Source: Patescibacteria group bacterium
GTDB lineage: Bacteria; Patescibacteriota; Microgenomatia; UBA10105; UBA927
Reading direction: 5' to 3'
DNA length: 64,000 nt
Assembly (NCBI GenBank): GCA_035510735.1
Contig: DATKGN010000007.1
Location: 105 to 64,104, forward strand
Of this stretch, positions 2,560-64,000 are shown piece after piece. The number at the start of each line of letters is the position of its first letter. The stretch's first letter is position 1. The notes below the pieces were generated by a model, which was given only the letters and a program-made list of their open reading frames with translations, did not search any database and was not told the origin of the DNA. The translations under genes and the position numbers were made by a program.

Positions 2560-5316
2560 ATGCAACGCGTTGATGTTGATCGACCACAGCCTTCTATGCC
2601 TGCCTTTACGGAAGGCTCTGTACTTCCTCCGTATGAACCCATCAGGTTCCCGGTAAACATCAATGCACTAGAGAAGCTCGCACAAACCGATCCCGCAGCG
2701 TGCATATTTTACGCATTCCTCTCGCCCGAACCGAGCTATCAAGGGTTATTGGATTTTTTAGACAATGGCGGAAATTTTTTCAAAAGGCGATTGCCTCACG
2801 ATCAATTTGATAGAAATCCGGAACTTAACAAAATCGTCAACTCATATCTACAACGTGCTCTTGATGAAAACTCCATTAACGGCACCAAAAGAATCGTACA
2901 ATCTCCTCTCTATCATGATATTGCCGAAATTTGCCAATATATACTTCAAAAAACGGAAACGCCGCAGGACTCCCCACACCTAACCCCGATTAAGCGAGCG
3001 CAGCTTGAACGCCAAGCGATTGAAACAGTTCAGCTTCGATATCCGACTGTTCATAAAATCCAAAACGATTGGCAGGCTTCACGGGATCTCTCGCGCGAAA
3101 TGTGGAGACTCGAACTTCAGACGCATTCGACAACCTCAGAAGATGTACTTCCGGAAAATCTCCGTCAGACACTAGTAGATAGAATCGATGAAATAACAGG
3201 ACAAGCGATCTATGATTACACGGTACCTCTTTGGAGGGAACAGGAGTTCATGACCGGCCGGTTTACCGGTAAAAAGGACCGATGGAAACAACCGATAGCC
3301 GTCCCCATCCGACCGCTTTCAAAGGAAGAATTTGCGTCGCTCCACATTGTACCGAAGTGGGATTATTCAAAAATCGGCTACAATCTATTCATAGAATTCC
3401 GCGACACAAATGGTAAACAGGTACCGGTATGTTTTAAAGAACCACGCGAAGATGATAATCACCTGTTTTTTTGGCTTCGATCTCTTGCCCCTTTAGAAAA
3501 AAAAGACATATTCAAGAATTACCTAAGAGAATCTGACATGTCATATCTCAGCGGCTTCTATACAAATGCATTATATGGAAGCTTCTGGATATCACACGTA
3601 CCGAGACTCCGCCGCGCGCTCCAGGAAAATAATTTCATAGAGTGGAAAACACTCGCAGAAGAATTCATAACCTCGCTCCCCGAAAAGGCATATGATATCG
3701 CTGTCGGAATTCGATATGGTGATTTTTATACATTCATCAAATTTATCTACGATTCTGTTGGCCCTGATACACTTGTCCGTCGGGAACTAGCAGCCCGACA
3801 AATGGGGCTTCCGAATATTTGCGACGCCGTTCCCGAAAATTACTGTCCAAAAGAAAAATCTTCCGAATCATCCATAGCATATTTGCCAACAGATTTAACG
3901 GTAACGAAAAATGATTCCAAAAAAGAATATGAGGCAAAATTAGCCATATCTGCATTCTTTGTGAGCATGCCGCAATCGTGGCTAGCGAAAGATCAGGCGC
4001 TCGATTTCCCAACCAACGAAGAGCATGCGAAGGGTAAGTGGCAGCCACTAGAATTTCCTCTTTCGGGGGCACAAGCTTTGGATTTCACCGATATCACAAC
4101 CACGAACCCCATTCATGCTACGCATGACTACCTCGCCCTCCCGGCGCCTACTCATGGTCAAATGGCATCCATAGAACTTATCAATTCCTTAAGAGAACCT
4201 CTCGCATACGGTACCGACTACATACTTGAATACGATGCCGCACGCAACCAATACAGAGCAAAATTGTTTAACCCGATATATAACGATTCTGTATTTCATA
4301 TCCGCATGCGATTCGCCCCTGGCGACGAATCGGCAAATCCTAATGAAGCTATCCTCATCGATTCAGAGGCTGTTGCCGCAGTGTCAGAACGGCTAGCTCA
4401 TTTGGGCTACACTGCCCTTGCTAACAATCTTAACCACGCATTGACCTATGCAAACGGCTCAATGACAACTGGCGATATTGCCCGAGTTGTGGCCAAAAGC
4501 TCGGATTATTCATTTGACACAAATTATCAACCTATCCCGTCCGATAACCCGTTTATCGCACTCTCCGGTTTTATTGACCACACAACCGGCCGACTGCAAG
4601 TCCAATGTAAAGGTGCAAATACCTTTTTAACCGCAATACTCAATGAACTATTGCCAGACGGATGCCGCGCTGAAACCATATCTTGTTACTCCTTGCAAAA
4701 CATTAAAAACCAACAAGCCGGGGATGATCCTATTTCCGCAACGATTAGCCAGGGAAATTTGCATGCCAGGACACATATATTTGTGGGTGAAGAACGAATC
4801 GCTGTCATCGATGGAACGCCGTATAGCCTGAATCATCAGGATGTATCAGCGCTTCCATATGAACAAGAAGAAGGACTATCGCCGGAAGATGAACGGGCAG
4901 CGTTTCTATCAATTCTCGATGAATCGCTCAAAAATATTATGAAAGAGCCCGGACTATTAGCCCACCTGGACCGCTGGGGAGATAAACGAGCCATGGAACC
5001 TCTTATTGATAGCCTTCGACTCGCAGCCTTCATCCAGGATCTGTCGCATGGAGTTGAAATGTCACCAGGTCGAATCGGCGGAATGTACGAAACATACGGA
5101 GAGGAAATTAACGAGAATAGCATACTCACGGAAACATTGCTTTCCCAATGGATAGAGACCGCTACGACAACCTTACGTCAAGCGATTGAATACGCGAGTA
5201 CGAAGCAATTCATCTGGAAAGAACTACCCATATATGGTGATGGCACGGTCGTATTTAAGACCCTTGGGATACTCAAAACTGCACAATCGCTCCTTAATGT
5301 GGCGCCGAATGAATAA
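2560..5316 (+). CDS. large hypothetical protein (918 aa)
   Basis: Uninterrupted 2.7-kb ORF; upstream 'atcctataattcg' (-10-like TATAAT) around 2521-2533; no recognisable domain. Confidence 0.6.
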   Translation: MQRVDVDRPQPSMPAFTEGSVLPPYEPIRFPVNINALEKLAQTDPAACIFYAFLSPEPSYQGLLDFLDNGGNFFKRRLPHDQFDRNPELNKIVNSYLQRALDENSINGTKRIVQSPLYHDIAEICQYILQKTETPQDSPHLTPIKRAQLERQAIETVQLRYPTVHKIQNDWQASRDLSREMWRLELQTHSTTSEDVLPENLRQTLVDRIDEITGQAIYDYTVPLWREQEFMTGRFTGKKDRWKQPIAVPIRPLSKEEFASLHIVPKWDYSKIGYNLFIEFRDTNGKQVPVCFKEPREDDNHLFFWLRSLAPLEKKDIFKNYLRESDMSYLSGFYTNALYGSFWISHVPRLRRALQENNFIEWKTLAEEFITSLPEKAYDIAVGIRYGDFYTFIKFIYDSVGPDTLVRRELAARQMGLPNICDAVPENYCPKEKSSESSIAYLPTDLTVTKNDSKKEYEAKLAISAFFVSMPQSWLAKDQALDFPTNEEHAKGKWQPLEFPLSGAQALDFTDITTTNPIHATHDYLALPAPTHGQMASIELINSLREPLAYGTDYILEYDAARNQYRAKLFNPIYNDSVFHIRMRFAPGDESANPNEAILIDSEAVAAVSERLAHLGYTALANNLNHALTYANGSMTTGDIARVVAKSSDYSFDTNYQPIPSDNPFIALSGFIDHTTGRLQVQCKGANTFLTAILNELLPDGCRAETISCYSLQNIKNQQAGDDPISATISQGNLHARTHIFVGEERIAVIDGTPYSLNHQDVSALPYEQEEGLSPEDERAAFLSILDESLKNIMKEPGLLAHLDRWGDKRAMEPLIDSLRLAAFIQDLSHGVEMSPGRIGGMYETYGEEINENSILTETLLSQWIETATTTLRQAIEYASTKQFIWKELPIYGDGTVVFKTLGILKTAQSLLNVAPNE

Positions 5317-7443: not shown

Positions 7444-7622
7444 AGATTATGTTTTAATATCATCATATAGTAATTCTGATAACAGTTGGATATATCACAT
7501 TTAGGCCACTTAATGCAAGTTCTTACTTGCATTTTTCCATCCTATAGTGTATAATTTCGAAACACTAATTACCTTAAAAAGATTGCTTCGCCGTGAGAAC
7601 GGCCTCGCAATGACAAAAAAAC

Positions 7623-9396: not shown

Positions 9397-9436
9397 ATGT
9401 GGTCAGTTGCCGAGTTTTCGAGGCTTACTGCCACAT

Positions 9437-9599
9437 ATGGTTTGTATTCAAACCATTGATGGTTCGTAGACGCGACACCGTGACGCGTGGCTGTAAGCCT
9501 CGGGAGAAGGTAAGAATGGAGTGGGATTGTGGCAACTTGGCGAGTGAATTCTTATTCATGAGTTTAGGTGCCGATCAATGGTTTGTATTCAAACCATTA
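9437..9599. repeat. two copies of a 20-22-bp hairpin 'atggtttgtattcaaaccat' (9437..9458 and 9578..9599) flanking a ~120-nt segment
   Basis: Seen directly; each copy is self-complementary; the overlapping track ORF 9363..9614 is likely spurious. Confidence 0.4.
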
Positions 9600-9620
9600 G
9601 TGGCTCTTTTATAAAAACGA

Positions 9621-9696
9621 GTAACCGGTAATCGGTAACTGGTAATCAGTAAATTGACAATTTACCGATTACGAATTACGGGTTACGGATTACCAT
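9621..9696. repeat. ~76-bp imperfect palindrome built of GGTAAC/GGTAAT units (centre 'gtaaattg-ac-caatttac')
   Basis: Seen directly; reverse complement of the right arm matches the left arm with few mismatches. Confidence 0.5.
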
Positions 9697-13285: not shown

Positions 13286-16200
13286 ATGAAAATCATCTTC
13301 AAAACACTTGGTAAGTACTGGCCCATCCTGGCACTTCTTGTTATTGAGGTTATTTTGTTCTCAGCCAACTACACCCCGCACACGTTTGTTGTGGGTTGGG
13401 ACAATATGTATCCGGAGCTTAACTTCGGACTTAATCTTAAACGCGCGTTTTTCGGAATCTGGCAGGAGTATCGCGGATTAGGCCTGGAAGACGGACTATC
13501 CCACATAGCAGAGTTACCCCACTACCTATTTCTTTGGCTCCTCTCACTCGCCATCCCGCAGAACTTATTACGGTATACCTTTATATTTCTCATGCACTTC
13601 GTTGGCGGCGTTGGCATGTATTGGTTACTGAAAAACCATATCTTCGCGAAACATCATTCGATCGCAATTCAGCCAATTGCCCTCGCAGGAGCATTGTTTT
13701 ACCAATTTAACTTCGCAACCATTCAGATGTTTTACCTCCCATTTGAAGTGTTTATGGTTCATTTCGCCGCATTACCGTGGCTAATATATGCTGCGCTCCG
13801 ATATCTTGATGCAGGAGCCAAAAAATATCTTTGGCTTTTTGCTATTTTTTCACTTATATCTACCCCTCAAGCTCATGTGCCAACGGTTTTTCTTGTTTAC
13901 GCGATGACTCTAGGGATTATTCTGATAACTCATATGCTTACTTTTCGAAGTCGAATCGCCGTTCAGAGAAGCCTCATCATTATTTTCATCACGTTTATGG
14001 TAAACGCGTTTTGGGGGCTGCCTTTTACTCATACAACAATCACCCATGCCAGCGATATCGCCAATTCTAAGAACAATCAAATGGCTACCGATGATATATA
14101 TCTTAAGAACCAAAAGTATGGAGATCTTATGGATACTGCACTCATGCGGAGTTTTAGCCTTGACTACGTTCAATATGACTACACCACACACTCTCAGAAT
14201 AATATGTTTACCGCCTGGAAAACCCATATAGATAAACCAACCATATCGATAATCTCCGGGGTATTTTTTGCGCTAGCGGTTGTGGGTGTTGCACTTATTC
14301 TCATCCGCCAAAAAAAAGAAGGCTACCCGTTCGTTCTTCTTTTTGTATTCGCATTCCTTGTAATCGGAAATAACATCCCGATACTTTCCCGTTTCTCCGA
14401 AACTCTACAAACGATTATCCCTCTTTTTCACAATGTATTTCGTTTCGTATTCACAAAATTTTTTACTCTTTACGCATTTTCGTATGCGATACTAATTGCC
14501 TATACTCTCTATGAAATAGTTCACAGCACGAGCCACGCAATAAAAAGAGACACAATTATCATTGTATCGTTTTTTGTCGTAATTCTGACGATTTATACGT
14601 TACCGTCGTTTCAGGGAAACTTCTTTTTCAAAAATCTCCGCGTGGCAATACCACAGGAATACTTTGAAACATTCAATTTTTTATCTCAACAAAATCCGTC
14701 AGAACGGGTACTTGTGCTTCCTGCTCCATGGTTTTGGGCGTGGACACAATATAACTGGGATGTCATCGGATCAGGTTTCGAGTGGTTCGGTATCCCCCAA
14801 CCAATCGTCGATCGTGCATTTGACCCCTGGAGCCGAACGGATGAAAACCTTTATTGGGAGCTTTCGCAGGCCATATTCACCAAAAATCCGTCCCGCTTTG
14901 AAGAAATATTGAAGAAATATAACATCACGTGGGTACTCTACGATAAAAATATCATAAACGGCGACTATGAAAGATCTCTTTATAGCGATGTTATTACACA
15001 ATCCCTTGAGTCACTCAAACAAATATCTCCTCCTCAAACCTTCGGTAATATTTCTCTTTACAATTATCAAACGGATAACCCGGATAAAACATCCATCACC
15101 TCGTACGATGGGCTTCCGAATATCGGACCGCAGTATGCGTGGAACGATTATGATGCTCCCCTCCGGGACGTTTCGATATACAAAACTGACACACATACGC
15201 CGTACGATATATATTACCCATTCCGATCGTTATTTACCGGAAGATCACAAAAAGAACTGACATTCACAATTGAAGATCAGCAAAACGACTATAGAATAAA
15301 CACATTGGTACAAGGTATTTCGTCGGGGCAACAACTGGTCACACCCGCATTTGACCCTCAAATATTAACTGATATCGATTCAAAAACAGGAAAACTTATT
15401 GCGCCGCCGGAACCACTAGCGGTACTCCTCAATTCTGAAATAATTGCTACCATAGGGGCCAAACCTGAAATAACGGAATTAAACACCACCTCTCCAAGCA
15501 TACTGACCTTGCAGATACCCAAGATCAAAAATTATCAATACTACGACAGCGATCTCACGAGCGATTTCTCACAAACACCCAAAAGCTGTGACGGATATAA
15601 TACCGGTGTGTTTTCCAGACACTCCGGAGTGGATAATCAGCAGAAGTATCTTCGATTTACAAGTGTCGGATCAAGCAATTGTATTTCGTTCGGCCTATCC
15701 TCCTTTTCCCAAAAAGAAGGGTATCTCGTTCAAGTAAATACAAGACATATTGAAGGGAAATATCTGTCTATTTCAATTGTCAACAATGATACCCGACGGG
15801 CGTTCTTAGAAACGCAGATTGATACACCAGCAGATTCATCAGCTTTTGTACCTTCCTACTTCGTCATCCCGCCTATGGATCCGTACGGATTAGGTTATAC
15901 CATAACAATTGATAATGTCGCGATCGGGAGTCAAAAAACAATTAATGATTTAGCGCGCGTTTCGGTATATCAGTTGTCGTACGCCATACTTTCTGACTTG
16001 AAAATTCAACAATCTAATACTGTCTCTACTTCTTCTGCAAGCACTTCTGAATTGTCCGTCTCTCATCCAAATCCCGCGTACTATAAAGTAGTAATCGGTA
16101 ATAATGGATCCCCGATCAGGTCGGGGATGACAAATACACTCATCCTTTCCCAATCCTTTGATAACGGGTGGAAAGCCTACAGTATCAATAATCCAATAAT

Positions 16201-16504
16201 CCAATATACAAATAATCCAATAATCAAATGGATTGGAGAATCGCTGCCATTCGTATTTGGCACGGAATTTACAAATCACGTCCTCGTCAATAATTGGGAA
16301 AATGGATGGGAGCTGCCTGAGGCAGAAGTTCATGGTTCAAAGTTCATAGTTCAGGGCAACACGAATCAACCATCAACCATGAACAATGAACCAATAACCA
16401 TTATTCTCTTTTTCTGGCCGCAGCTATTGGAGTATTTGGGATTTCTCCTTCTCCCTATTCCATTCATCTATGTATGGAGATTGAAGTACGTCGAAAAACA
16501 CTAA
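13286..16504 (+). CDS. large polytopic membrane protein (1072 aa), possible GT-C/YfhO-like membrane glycosyltransferase or polysaccharide-assembly protein
   Basis: About 12 N-terminal hydrophobic helices, a long extracytoplasmic C-terminal domain, a final TM near the C-terminus; immediately downstream of the GT2 gene. Confidence 0.55.
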   Translation: MKIIFKTLGKYWPILALLVIEVILFSANYTPHTFVVGWDNMYPELNFGLNLKRAFFGIWQEYRGLGLEDGLSHIAELPHYLFLWLLSLAIPQNLLRYTFIFLMHFVGGVGMYWLLKNHIFAKHHSIAIQPIALAGALFYQFNFATIQMFYLPFEVFMVHFAALPWLIYAALRYLDAGAKKYLWLFAIFSLISTPQAHVPTVFLVYAMTLGIILITHMLTFRSRIAVQRSLIIIFITFMVNAFWGLPFTHTTITHASDIANSKNNQMATDDIYLKNQKYGDLMDTALMRSFSLDYVQYDYTTHSQNNMFTAWKTHIDKPTISIISGVFFALAVVGVALILIRQKKEGYPFVLLFVFAFLVIGNNIPILSRFSETLQTIIPLFHNVFRFVFTKFFTLYAFSYAILIAYTLYEIVHSTSHAIKRDTIIIVSFFVVILTIYTLPSFQGNFFFKNLRVAIPQEYFETFNFLSQQNPSERVLVLPAPWFWAWTQYNWDVIGSGFEWFGIPQPIVDRAFDPWSRTDENLYWELSQAIFTKNPSRFEEILKKYNITWVLYDKNIINGDYERSLYSDVITQSLESLKQISPPQTFGNISLYNYQTDNPDKTSITSYDGLPNIGPQYAWNDYDAPLRDVSIYKTDTHTPYDIYYPFRSLFTGRSQKELTFTIEDQQNDYRINTLVQGISSGQQLVTPAFDPQILTDIDSKTGKLIAPPEPLAVLLNSEIIATIGAKPEITELNTTSPSILTLQIPKIKNYQYYDSDLTSDFSQTPKSCDGYNTGVFSRHSGVDNQQKYLRFTSVGSSNCISFGLSSFSQKEGYLVQVNTRHIEGKYLSISIVNNDTRRAFLETQIDTPADSSAFVPSYFVIPPMDPYGLGYTITIDNVAIGSQKTINDLARVSVYQLSYAILSDLKIQQSNTVSTSSASTSELSVSHPNPAYYKVVIGNNGSPIRSGMTNTLILSQSFDNGWKAYSINNPIIQYTNNPIIKWIGESLPFVFGTEFTNHVLVNNWENGWELPEAEVHGSKFIVQGNTNQPSTMNNEPITIILFFWPQLLEYLGFLLLPIPFIYVWRLKYVEKH

Positions 16505-20569: not shown

Positions 20570-22114
20570 TTATAGAATCCCATCCGAATATACGTTTGTG
20601 CCATAGAGAGCTCTTTTAATATCACTCATGCGAGCCTGCGAGATCCTGCCCTGATATAGATCGAGAAATTTTTCTACTCTACCCATTTCGCCAGTCAATA
20701 TGCCTTTTTTTCTCCACGTATCTATAGCAGTTAATAAGCCAATTGCCGCCTGATCTCTCTCATGTGAAAGATCAAAAGCGAGTCCATGTCGGACAACAGA
20801 AAGTCCGCCATCCACGCTCATCATGCGGGGCATATACCGGACCATTTTGGCGTAACTCCCGTGCCGACGCTCCGCCTGCTCATCTAACATCTCGCCAATG
20901 AGATCGCCCACATGATAATCATGCGCATCCCACCACGCGTAAAGCTCTGCAATTTCAATATCAACATCCTGAGTCGGAATCTTTCTCACCTTGTTTATAA
21001 GATTTCTCACCCGCCGGTCCGTAGGCTTAAACCATCGTAAGAAAAGAATTCCAATCCGCTGATCCGTCCCGTAGTATAAATACCGTTCTAAAAACGGTTC
21101 GAATTCCTTTTTATAACTGACGAATCGACGTAACATATAGTCAACTATGCCGGATCTGACTTCCTCATCCTGATAATTGAGCCCTTTTAATAAGGGAACC
21201 AAAAGTTTATTGTGCCAATGCCGACTATCCATATCATTGGCGATTGTCACAGCAATATGCGCAATTTGTTGCTTCCAAGCGGTCGTAATTTTTTTCATTT
21301 CGACCGGTGAACAACGCCAATCCTCCTGAAGCGGCAGTTTATAGAGCTTCACGGCTGCGTCGATAAATGCTTCTCTTGCATCAGTAACATTATGTTCTAG
21401 AGCCGCGCCCACGAGTCCCGAGGTAATTTCAAGATCTCCTGAGGTAATTTCATGGACATCACCCTCCAACATTTCTGATTGAGCGTCTTCTATGATCAAT
21501 GAAGATAAAAACTTCTTTGCATACCATGATTTATTATGCGGCTCCGTTCCGTTTTTGAACGTGTCATCACTAAATGTATCTAACCCCATTTGTACCAATT
21601 TCCAAAGCCGAAATTGATAGTCAACGACATTGTCGACATTTGATAAGTTACTTTGAACTTTGTCGATAGCACGCATCGTTTGAGTAAAATACTCCTCTTT
21701 TTTTCTCGAGTAGAGAGTATTATCTTGCCATATCATAGTTGTTGCAAGTGCCCGTCCAACATACTTTGGTATTTTCTCATCAAATTCGGGTGAATTGAAA
21801 AAGTTATTTTCCTGTGCCACATACAGTGCGCCTTCAACAAGCCGTTTGTGCATTCCTTCAGGAGATATAATTGCCCGTCCGCCAAGATGTTCCATTGCAA
21901 AGGATTCTCCGGGGATAGCACCTGAGGAGACAATATCGATCGCGCGCATCCATTTGTCGATATCGCGACCATCCAAGGATTGCGCAATAAATAGAGAATG
22001 CTGCTCTTTATTATTTAATTGAAGTTTAAGGTTTTCCTGCATAATACCAGTCCGTTTTTGGAGCAGATGAACGTTATGTCCAGGATAATATATCAACCGG
22101 GCCCGTTGTGTCAA
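20570..22114 (-). CDS. hypothetical protein, paralog family A
   Basis: 'KYVGRALATTMIWQDN' and 'WKLVQMGLDTF' blocks align with family A members. Confidence 0.5.
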   Translation of the reverse strand: MTQRARLIYYPGHNVHLLQKRTGIMQENLKLQLNNKEQHSLFIAQSLDGRDIDKWMRAIDIVSSGAIPGESFAMEHLGGRAIISPEGMHKRLVEGALYVAQENNFFNSPEFDEKIPKYVGRALATTMIWQDNTLYSRKKEEYFTQTMRAIDKVQSNLSNVDNVVDYQFRLWKLVQMGLDTFSDDTFKNGTEPHNKSWYAKKFLSSLIIEDAQSEMLEGDVHEITSGDLEITSGLVGAALEHNVTDAREAFIDAAVKLYKLPLQEDWRCSPVEMKKITTAWKQQIAHIAVTIANDMDSRHWHNKLLVPLLKGLNYQDEEVRSGIVDYMLRRFVSYKKEFEPFLERYLYYGTDQRIGILFLRWFKPTDRRVRNLINKVRKIPTQDVDIEIAELYAWWDAHDYHVGDLIGEMLDEQAERRHGSYAKMVRYMPRMMSVDGGLSVVRHGLAFDLSHERDQAAIGLLTAIDTWRKKGILTGEMGRVEKFLDLYQGRISQARMSDIKRALYGTNVYSDGIL

Positions 22115-41419: not shown

Positions 41420-43570
41420 TTATTCTCTCTTTAACACTTCAAAAAACGCTGACTGAGGGATTTCGACCCGGCCTATTAATTTCATCCGGGCTTTTCCTTT
41501 GGCCTGTTTCTTTAATAATTTATCCTTACGTGTCCTATCGCCGCCGTAGAGCTTCTGGATAACGTCTTTGCGGAATGCTTTCACATCGGCACGTGCTACA
41601 ATCTGGCCCCCAATGGCGCCCTGGATCGGAATCTGGAACTGCTGGCGCGGGATAACCTGGGCCAACCGCTCGACGATGGCTATGCTCCGATGGTGCGCCT
41701 GATCGCGGACGGCGAGAAATGAAAGTGCGTCGACTTTTTCTTTGTTTACCAAAATATCAATTTTTACCACATCGACCGCCTGAAATTCAAAAAATTCATA
41801 ATCCAGGGATGCATAACCCTCCGAAATACTCTTTAAACGGTCAAAAAAATCAATAATCATATCGGAGAGCGGGAGCAAATACGTCATCTCGACCATAATG
41901 CGCGAATCAAATTCATTAGGCTCGTCTTCGACCTCACCCGCTTTGTCTATTGTTGTATTGTTGTATTGTTGTATTGTTACTTCTCCATGTAAGTACTTCA
42001 TATCGATGTATTCGCCGCGCTTCTCCTGCGATAGCTGCATGATCGCGCCGACGTAGCGCTTGGGGGTAAAAATTTTCACATCCATGATGGGCTCTTTCAC
42101 GCCGTCGATGTAGGTTGGGTCGGGAAATTCGGTTGCGGATTGAATGGCGACCTCGACGCCTTGATCGGGCGCTGAGGTTGCTCGTCCAATTTCTCGGGCA
42201 GTTCGATCCCCGCTTTGCGGGGCCGCTTCGCCGGACGTCTCGAAATTGTCCAAGCGCCCCGCGCCCCGTACAAGTTCTGGGTGTTCATTTATAACAGACG
42301 ATACGGTCAATCCTAATTTAGAAAGCGATACGCCGCGCGCGAGCATGAGATGATATTCAACCGACGGCGCCGTCGCAATCATGTCAAGGTCAAACTCACG
42401 CGAAAGCCGTTCCTGCACAATTTCGGCGTGGAGTAAACCGAGGAATCCGCAGTGGAAACCATTGCCCAAGGCAAGGGATGAGATCGGCCGGAAGGTGAAA
42501 GCCGAGTCGCTTAACCGCAATTTTTCCATACACTCGCGTGCATGGGTAAATTCGTCGGCGTTTAATGGGAAGAGGCTCAAAAAAACCATGGGTTTGGGCT
42601 CCCTATATCCCGGTAGCGCCTCTTTTGCCTGCTTAGGCTGTATATGAGCATTCACGGTACTTCCGGCCGTTATGGTGTCACCTACCTTCGCTAAACGTAC
42701 ATCCTTAAGGCCTGTGGCAATGTACCCCACTTCACCAGTCGAAATCCCAGCAGATTTTACCATTTGGGGCATAAAAAAACCTGCCTCAATTGCCTGAATT
42801 TGAGCATTTGATGCGAAAAACTTAATACTCGTATGTGGATCGTACTGCATAGTACCATCAACTACCCGAACAAACACTACTACTCCTTTATGCGGGTCGT
42901 ACTGTGAGGAAAATATTAGTGCCCGCAGTGGTTTATCGGCATCACCGAACGGCGGCGGGATCCGATCAATAATTGCCTCAAGAACCGCTGGAACATTTTG
43001 CCCGGTCTTAGCGGAAATCTCTATCATCTCCTCATCTCTAAACCCTAATGCTCTAAGCTCTGCGCGCGTTTCGACAATGCGCGCGTGCGGCATATCAATT
43101 TTATTAATCAAGGGAATTACGGTGAGGTTGTGGAGGCGCGCCTGATGGAGGTTCGCGAGGGTCTGCGCCTGGACGCCCTGGGTAGCGTCTACCACGAGAA
43201 GCGCGCCTTCACACGCCGCAAGCGACCGGGAAACCTCATAACCGAAATCAACATGGCCGGGAGTGTCGATGAGATTTAATATAAACTCCTCCTTGCTGTC
43301 ATTCCGGGCTTGACCCGGAATCCACACCGCATTCTCATGGATCCCGGCTCGGGGGCCGGGATGACAAAAAAAATGCATCCTCACCGGCGCAAGCTTTATC
43401 GTAATCCCCCGCTCACGCTCAATGGGATTGCTGTCAAGAAGCTGCGCCTGCATATCGCGCATCGCAACCGTCCCGGTAAGCTCCAGAAGCCTATCGGCGA
43501 GGGTACTTTTCCCATGATCGATATGGGCTATGATCGCAAAATTTCTAATATGATCTTGTTTCATATGCAA
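41420..43570 (-). CDS. lepA: elongation factor 4 (LepA)
   Basis: G1 '[18 protein letters not shown]', '[10 protein letters not shown]', '[16 protein letters not shown]', 'LINKID'; LepA-specific C-terminus '[34 protein letters not shown]'; the track start is a TTG, the likely ATG is 3 nt in (MKQDHIRNF). Confidence 0.95.
   Translation of the reverse strand: [716 protein letters not shown]
41421..41490. repeat. lepA 3'-terminal segment (copy A) that is repeated at 39537 and 38163; putative attL core
   Basis: Reverse complement encodes the lepA C-terminus '...[17 protein letters not shown]'. Confidence 0.65.
41948..41979. repeat. in-frame octamer tandem repeat (tattgttg)x4 inside lepA, encoding 'QQYNNTTI'
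   Basis: Seen directly; lies in a lineage-specific insertion relative to canonical LepA (between 'YHGxxV' and 'LDFFDRLKS'). Confidence 0.6.
43297..43367. mobile_element. ~70-nt palindromic element inserted in-frame in lepA (RPE-like), termini TGTCAT...ATGACA
   Basis: 'tgtcattccgggcttgacccggaatcc...ggatcccggctcgggggccgggatgaca': two internal hairpins plus terminal inverted repeats. It encodes '[23 protein letters not shown]' between ITIK and [12 protein letters not shown]. Removing it restores canonical LepA spacing. Confidence 0.6.
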
Positions 43571-43579
43571 AATTGTTTA

Positions 43580-43650
43580 CCCCGTAGACGTGCTCTTGCG
43601 AGGCGATCCGTCAGCTGACGGATCGCGAGCAAGTAAACGTTCTACTGGGG
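43580..43650. promoter_or_regulatory. ~70-bp imperfect palindrome with perfect 22-bp core 'cgatccgtcagctgacggatcg' in the lepA / HAD-gene divergent promoter region
   Basis: Seen directly; outer arms 'ccccgtagacg...cgttctactgggg' also pair; function (operator or hairpin element) unknown. Confidence 0.35.
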
Positions 43651-55832: not shown

Positions 55833-55915
55833 TGTCATTGCGAGCCCATTCCGATGGCGAAGCAATCTATAATTTACGGGATTGCCACGTCTCGAAGACT
55901 CGACTCGCAATGACA
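55833..55915. mobile_element. ~83-bp intergenic palindromic element, termini 'tgtcattgcgag' / 'ctcgcaatgaca', internal hairpin 'gcaatc...gattgc'
   Basis: Seen directly; same TGTCAT...ATGACA architecture as the lepA in-frame element; a right-half fragment ('gattgcttcgcc...ggcctcgcaatgaca') occurs at 7581..7607. Confidence 0.55.

Positions 55916-60908: not shown

Positions 60909-64000
<3,092 letters not shown>

Follow-up and report, generated by a model that had tools for sequence, protein, structure and literature searches.

An in-frame TGTC-tagged palindromic repeat of the CGTC REP superfamily in the lepA gene of a Patescibacteria group bacterium

A palindromic element lies in frame in lepA

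We analysed 64,000 nucleotides of a Patescibacteria group bacterium (assembly GCA_035510735.1, contig DATKGN010000007.1, positions 105 to 64,104; hereafter the window), in which a 70-nt palindromic element at 43297..43366 lies inside lepA, the gene for elongation factor 4 (EF4, LepA). The enclosing open reading frame (ORF) of 716 codons runs over 41420..43570 on the minus strand with an ATG at 43564. Its product aligns with solved EF4/LepA proteins across all domains (E=6e-177 to T. thermophilus EF4), has intact G1-G4 motifs and is identical to an NCBI entry from a Patescibacteria-group metagenome-assembled genome (MAG; 70,170-bp contig).

The element begins with TGTCAT and ends with ATGACA. 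It is composed of TGTC-ATTCCGGG-CTTGA-CCCGGAAT-CCA, a 13-nt spacer and TGG-ATCCCGGC-TCGGGG-GCCGGGAT-GACA, that is, of two hairpin units (A and B) that differ in their stems and face each other inversely with the TGTC tags outermost. An earlier interpretation made from the letters alone (the sequence-only reading) had described these termini and both internal hairpins, ATTCCGGG/CCCGGAAT and ATCCCGGC/GCCGGGAT, as we find them; its coordinates, 43297-43367, run one A too far at the end. Relative to shuffled sequences, the element folds with z=-2.7 as RNA and z=-3.9 as DNA.

In the 714-aa protein the insert corresponds to residues 67-89, in frame between G2 (GITIK) and G3 (DTPGH), which agrees with the earlier placement after ITIK. 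On the lepA strand unit A encodes the peptide WIPGQARND and unit B the peptide CHPGPRAGI. When orthologues are aligned, as had been proposed, the segment is absent from the solved EF4 proteins and from the nearest LepA relatives, including the three closest ones; the HMMER alignment gaps solved EF4 over most of it. An assembly artefact was rejected, since the same arrangement is present in independent assemblies with diverged flanks.

The element is a CGTC-tagged REP heterodimer

The lepA element is a selfish palindromic repeat of the CGTC-tagged superfamily of repetitive extragenic palindromes (REPs) described by Di Nocera, De Gregorio and Rocco (2013, BMC Genomics 14:522; PMC3733652), the same superfamily to which the Rickettsia palindromic elements RPE-4 and RPE-6 belong. 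According to this paper, such REPs have a stem 8-9 bp long whose first two positions are a complementary A and T, a loop of 4-5 nt (other lengths in some families) and an unpaired 3-nt tail with the consensus CCA, and they occur mainly as HH dimers (tags outside), often as heterodimers. Both units in lepA carry the TGTC tag, a perfect 8-bp stem starting with AT and CCA after the stem, and they form a tags-out dimer with different stems. The loop of unit A is 5 nt long; that of unit B is 6 nt, or 4 nt with a 9-bp stem in the DNA fold, so the 6-nt loop in the 8-bp-stem reading is the sole departure from the definition. Since the units fit the published definition of CGTC/TGTC REPs, the suggestion of an undescribed element family does not hold. 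In Rfam no family reached its gathering score for the element, and the single hit at E<=1 was at chance level.

In the 2013 survey these repeats were recorded from five phyla and without association with transposase genes, and intragenic dimers encoding 20-30 residues had already been reported. CGTC-1 and CGTC-4 were equated there with RPE-6 and RPE-4 of R. conorii, and Neisseria CGTC-1 with dRS3. The intragenic R. conorii peptides of its supplement (VIPAKAGI, CHSRESGNP and DSRFRGND) share reading frames, in a peptide-level comparison, with CHP... and ...RND here and with SVIPAKAGIQ in related LepA proteins. As with RPE-4/RPE-6, we deal with an in-frame insertion in a conserved protein gene that is absent from orthologues. 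Because the superfamily includes RPE-4 and RPE-6 and peptide frames are shared, the Rickettsia RPE-like behaviour noticed in the sequence-only reading turns out to be literally correct.

The LepA loop as a probable recurrent insertion site

We aligned the 120 closest LepA proteins, all of them similar to proteins of the candidate phyla radiation (CPR) and 560-773 aa long. At the position of the insert 55 have a minimal loop (VRMxY-K-xYILNL), 12 a short loop, 11 a TGTC-type dimer and 42 other long inserts. The empty site HYKEYILNL is seen in P0004, P0006 and P0009, the nearest relatives of the window protein (85-86% identical to it when aligned columns are counted), and the more distant P0005, at 79% identity, bears the same element as the window LepA. 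Among independent assemblies the site holds at least five combinations of units between TGTCAT and ATGACA (Table 1). Each genome having its own unit types at this loop, the site appears to have been hit or overwritten repeatedly. In locus L006, on a 995-kb CPR contig, the unit types found at the lepA site recur as REP dimers in frame in ArgRS and MreB (4895..4967 and 21349..21401). One LepA (L131, 539..1719) has three dimers at three loops, and REP-type peptides are found at two further sites in other LepA proteins. Although conserved, lepA can be dispensed with in E. coli, so its earlier description as essential is too strong; this dispensability may help to explain why the gene collects inserts.

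In six lepA genes with the CCGGG/CCCGGC subfamily the four-fold degenerate sites are only 0.32-0.56 identical, i.e. near saturation, yet across the same six genes the 28-nt unit A shows one base difference at most, a conservation at the DNA level far above the synonymous background; the spacers differ. Judging from these sequences, the unit copies would be either younger than the divergence of their hosts or held constant at the DNA level. Saturated synonymous sites together with near-identical units speak for repeated insertion or turnover rather than for a single ancient event. A single insertion in a Microgenomates-like ancestor, passed on by vertical descent, with units kept uniform by gene conversion with other copies in the genome or by hairpin selection and with repeated precise loss, would account for the position, orientation and unit order that the six copies share (they differ mainly in spacer and loop), and precise excision is typical of hairpin-dependent HUH transposition. 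We nevertheless regard this scenario as improbable: besides the contrast in divergence, it is at odds with the number of unit combinations at the site and with the recurrence of the L006 types in ArgRS and MreB, and the minimal loop of the three closest relatives is that of distant CPR lineages at 39-51% identity.

Seven of the other long inserts, those with available DNA, were folded. Five of them (L136, L129, L184, L197 and L155, but not L201 and L139) are long imperfect hairpins of unrelated sequence, some of them built from short motifs and their complements, which suggests that these genomes generally tend to acquire palindromes in coding loops. Two further lineage-specific inserts are present in the window LepA itself (42163..42298 and 41896..41995, about aa 432-468 and 530-556). 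In the model the former is disordered; it includes GGCCCCGCAAAGCGGGGATCGA, a degenerate hairpin resembling a REP that may be an older unit in decay.

Tolerance of the insert in the protein

An AlphaFold2 model (62-sequence alignment; mean predicted local distance difference test, pLDDT, of 72) places the insert between strands 61-66 and 93-100, with residues 71-89 as coil at pLDDT <50. The insert is thus modelled as a disordered surface loop of the LepA G domain, in line with the surface loop that had been expected from mapping onto a structure. In the standard Ras-like fold the beta2-beta3 turn and the nucleotide (GTP) pocket are at opposite ends of the sheet. Read from its sequence, unit A is stop-free in four of the six reading frames, which helps in-frame survival, and in every CPR coding copy that we examined the frame is open through the element and in register downstream.

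The last observation bears on the idea that the element stays untranslated, through ribosome bypassing like that of the mitochondrial 'byp' palindromes or through removal from the mRNA. Stable hairpins do lie within the coding sequence, and bypassed mobile palindromes exist in yeast mitochondria, but copies that are open and in register throughout, with neither stops nor a frame interruption in any of them and with no evident pair of take-off and landing codons, make such an escape from translation extremely improbable. Di Nocera et al. regard CGTC REPs within genes as coding, and they refer to the in vivo expression of RPE-1-decorated R. conorii proteins.

It is also very unlikely that the insert has been selected for a function, either as an mRNA or DNA hairpin (a pause, regulatory or protein-binding site) or as an adaptive LepA loop. 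The units are conserved at synonymous positions, and long inserts are present in roughly half of the 120 LepA relatives, most of them hairpins of unrelated sequence where DNA is available; the other half of the relatives, including the closest, do without one. Neither the length nor the sequence of the insert is conserved, the modelled loop is disordered, and the same elements occur in other LepA loops, in unrelated proteins and in intergenic DNA.

Occurrence of the repeat in other genomes

The 26-mer of unit A, GTCATTCCGGGCTTGACCCGGAATCC, has exact matches in at least 120 genome stretches of a one-genome-per-species collection, which excludes a chance origin. Among the matches listed, hosts of this unit A 26-mer (GTCATTCCGGGYTTGAYCCGGAATCC) include Bacteroidota, alpha-, beta- and gamma-Proteobacteria, Chloroflexota, Nitrospirota, Planctomycetota, Spirochaetota, Armatimonadota, Verrucomicrobiota, Gottesmanbacteria, Moranbacteria and a Woesearchaeota MAG; hosts were taken from record titles, and since MAGs make up most of the records, binning errors could lie behind some of the assignments. 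Several matches, however, are on contigs or chromosomes of 2-5 Mb. The restriction to the present lineage that the sequence-only reading had implied is therefore not supported. Of 133 units at the cross-phylum loci, 86 are accompanied within 130 nt by an inverted ATGAC, and 60 of these 86 partners, with 21 different stems, pair at 7 or more of the 8 stem positions, against 1 of 81 control positions. Thus, the hairpin is kept while the sequence of the stem varies.

The heterodimer of units A and B is present in at least three copies in a Gottesmanbacteria genome (L055 and L080). Two CCGGG + CCCGGC dimers with an identical 36-nt spacer are in frame in a 647-aa membrane ORF (L080, 2986..3708), which indicates that the dimer spreads as a unit, spacer included; a third copy, on another contig, has a different spacer.

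The unit A 26-mer was also found in 13 viral-contig stretches. The element had no blastn match in plasmid and phage record collections, and a protein-database search with the doubled insert peptide (46 aa) returned one weak match. Head-to-tail arrays of the 26-mer were observed in L030 (5493..5706), L208, L213 and L219 (IMGVR_UViG_3300003667_000196); they comprise five copies with a 47-nt period on an Armatimonadota contig and, on two viral contigs, 6 and 10 single units in the same orientation (CCA-CGTCATTCCGGGCTTGACCCGGAATCCACTCAAC), about 50-2200 nt apart. Phages may be a vehicle for the TGTC repeat.

Mobility of the element

With good confidence, we favour the explanation that a non-autonomous selfish TGTC REP heterodimer has inserted into a loop of lepA at a site that is hit or overwritten repeatedly, each related genome contributing its own resident unit types. 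The entry point would be the beta2-beta3 hairpin tip in the G domain, and the dimer would be transcribed and translated within LepA, adding an unstructured and presumably neutral surface loop of about 23-26 residues. Its survival there would be due to the permissive loop, to the mostly stop-free unit A and to the fact that only frame-preserving insertions would be viable. The family would move as a whole dimer, spacer included, leaving no target-site duplication.

Several observations weigh against this explanation. None of the copies compared shows a target-site duplication, and the lengths from GTCAT to ATGAC in coding copies equal 0 or 2 modulo 3, values that define neither the exact inserted unit nor a fixed duplication. 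The literature names no dedicated transposase for CGTC REPs, and clustering of ORFs around 120 cross-phylum loci returned only generic large families and no recurrent transposase. For this genome the visible data are those of the 64-kb window, which holds one copy of the lepA-type dimer. In favour of the explanation, insert-bearing and empty LepA sequences interleave on a neighbour-joining tree, but this tree is simple and has no support values, so the interleaving carries limited weight. Finally, the common orientation and unit order of the six subfamily copies also fit one old insertion with gene conversion.

By analogy with GTAG REPs and their RAYTs and with IS200/IS605, mobilisation could proceed through hairpin- and single-stranded-DNA-dependent transposition by an HUH/Y1-type enzyme acting in trans. 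This is a tentative guess, made from the tetranucleotide beside the foot of the hairpin, the lack of duplication and the mobility of the dimer. A tblastn search with a CPR Y1 transposase detected no homologue in the window.

A RAYT-like Y1 transposase gene was seen on the CPR contig of L005 (8600..9612; 229 aa, Pfam Y1_Tnp, with the motifs HFH and YIHRNP), at a distance of 2.5 kb from a lepA carrying two TGTC dimers. Copies of the palindrome TAGCTTCGCAAGGCC-N-GGCCTTGCGAAGCTA stand on either side of the transposase gene, and the upstream one has a GTAG.

A bolder proposal is that CGTC/TGTC REP dimers, along with other palindromes, move at present in Patescibacteria genomes of about 1 Mb and land again and again at a few LepA loops, through target preference or hairpin-driven insertion and excision, beyond what selective filtering would give. 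We consider it rather doubtful; if true, the enzyme responsible for moving this orphan repeat superfamily would best be sought in such tiny genomes, which are almost devoid of mobile-element genes.

Other palindromes and repeats in the window

The window was scanned for GTC followed by a perfect stem starting with AT, a pattern that gives 0.54 units on average in shuffled sequence; in related loci the scan detected such units in pairs. Three units were detected, the two in lepA and a solo one at 16108..16131, which had been overlooked previously and sits in frame in a 1072-aa GT-C-like membrane ORF (13286..16504). Further along the same ORF, 16328..16384 forms an imperfect hairpin of short motifs. 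A search for TGTCATNCCGG...CCGGNATGACA with a gap of 50-75 nt, a setting that exceeds the gap of the lepA element, had no match in the window.

Two sites of a second type complete the family content of the window, which amounts to one lepA dimer, one solo unit and these two. The site 55833..55915, previously taken for a related intergenic copy, does share the TGTCAT/ATGACA termini and the dimer layout with the lepA element; its stems differ (ATTGCGAG type). The presumed fragment at 7581..7607 belongs to this second type and proves to be a solo unit reaching 7615.

Table 1. Features of the window and combinations of repeat units at the lepA insertion site
Feature	Position or locus	Strand	Description
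Complete element	43297..43366	.	heterodimer of two TGTC-tagged REP units, in frame in lepA
REP unit A	43297..43324	+	TGTC 43297-43300; stem ATTCCGGG/CCCGGAAT 43301-08/43314-21; loop CTTGA; CCA 43322-24
Spacer between CCA tails	43325..43337	.	13 nt; sequence and length unlike spacers of related lepA copies
REP unit B	43338..43366	-	TGTC 43366-43363; stem ATCCCGGC/GCCGGGAT 43341-48/43355-62; loop CCCCGA; tail CCA
Host gene lepA (EF4)	41420..43564	-	714 aa from ATG at 43564
Solo TGTC REP unit, stem ATCCCCGA	16105..16132 with tag and tail	-	reads GSPIRSGMT in frame on plus strand
Second-type dimer TGTCATTGCGAG...CTCGCAATGACA ('VIASEAKQS' type)	55833..55915	.	TGTC-tagged, intergenic between convergent ORFs, DNA fold z=-6.0
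Solo second-type unit TGTCATTGCGAGGCCGTTCTCACGGCGAAGCAATCT	7580..7615	-	intergenic, upstream of sortase gene
CCCGGC + CCGGG at lepA site	window, L001, L127, L131, L143, L144		left-arm variant in L003
CCTCGC + CCCGC at lepA site	L005
CCCCGA + CTCGC at lepA site	L006
ATTGCGAG type at lepA site	L004, L128		same type as window 55833..55915
CHPELVSGS...PKQVRHD type at lepA site	P0092, P0104		protein level only

Directly upstream of the lepA start, 43580..43650 forms a 70-nt near-perfect hairpin (DNA fold z=-6.6) that has GTAG motifs close to its two feet. The window holds one copy of it and the 206 loci searched hold none; it could be a GTAG-type REP or a regulatory hairpin. Long hairpins of short tandem-like motifs (GTAACCGGTAATCGG...) occupy 9419..9502 and 9616..9693, in a stretch without an ORF of at least 100 aa. 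On the minus strand, 60909..63836 encodes a collagen-like protein of 975 aa that consists of little else than G-x-T triplets and is the source of many of the repeats in that region.

Comparison with known systems

New with respect to the 2013 paper are the Patescibacteria (CPR) host, the mostly intragenic copies in lepA-centred loci and the recurrent use of one LepA loop; literature searches for palindromes lying in frame in CPR genes turned up nothing specific. The range of this class of gene-invading palindromes, already known from elsewhere, is thus extended to the candidate phyla radiation. Most repeats at the CPR loci that we examined, a sample biased to lepA, lie within genes that are conserved (LepA, ArgRS, MreB and a GT-C-like membrane ORF). 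The recurrent landing loop of LepA is a natural experiment on the gain of protein loops, and it calls for caution when CPR marker proteins are aligned or used for phylogenies. The mobiliser of CGTC REPs has been in question since 2013, and small CPR genomes with active copies would narrow the search.

Like MITEs (transposable elements of the miniature inverted-repeat kind), the lepA element is short, has terminal inverted repeats and encodes no transposase. It was rejected as a MITE: no direct repeat flanks any of the copies compared, there is no parent insertion sequence, and the element is made of two autonomous hairpins. With the GTAG REP doublets of the REPIN/RAYT system it shares two inverted hairpins that make a larger hairpin, a multi-copy state and the lack of a target-site duplication. 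Membership in this system was rejected as well, since the tag is TGTC and not GTAG and no RAYT flanked by TGTC units was found; the only RAYT-like gene seen, in L005, is flanked by a different, GTAG-type palindrome.

Neisseria dRS3 has the same unit architecture, with ATTCCC-N-GGGAAT stems, but is mostly clustered and intergenic and serves as a known integration target, a role that is not evident here. With RPE-4 and RPE-6 of Rickettsia the element has in common that REP units or dimers are in frame in conserved housekeeping proteins and give peptides of the VIPAKAGI, CH...P and D...RND types. The host belongs to another phylum, and the classical long RPE-1 is a separate, larger element.

To the CGTC-tagged REP families with 8-bp stems the element corresponds in the unpaired CGTC/TGTC tag, the 8-bp stem starting with AT, the short loop, the CCA tail, the HH heterodimers, the intragenic copies of 20-30 residues and the absence of a transposase. 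It differs from them in one 6-nt loop (4-5 nt in REPs), in a spacer of 13 nt (mostly 20-100 nt in REPs) and in its Patescibacteria host. Whereas these REPs are mostly intergenic elsewhere, the CPR copies, in our lepA-centred and hence biased sample, are nearly all intragenic.

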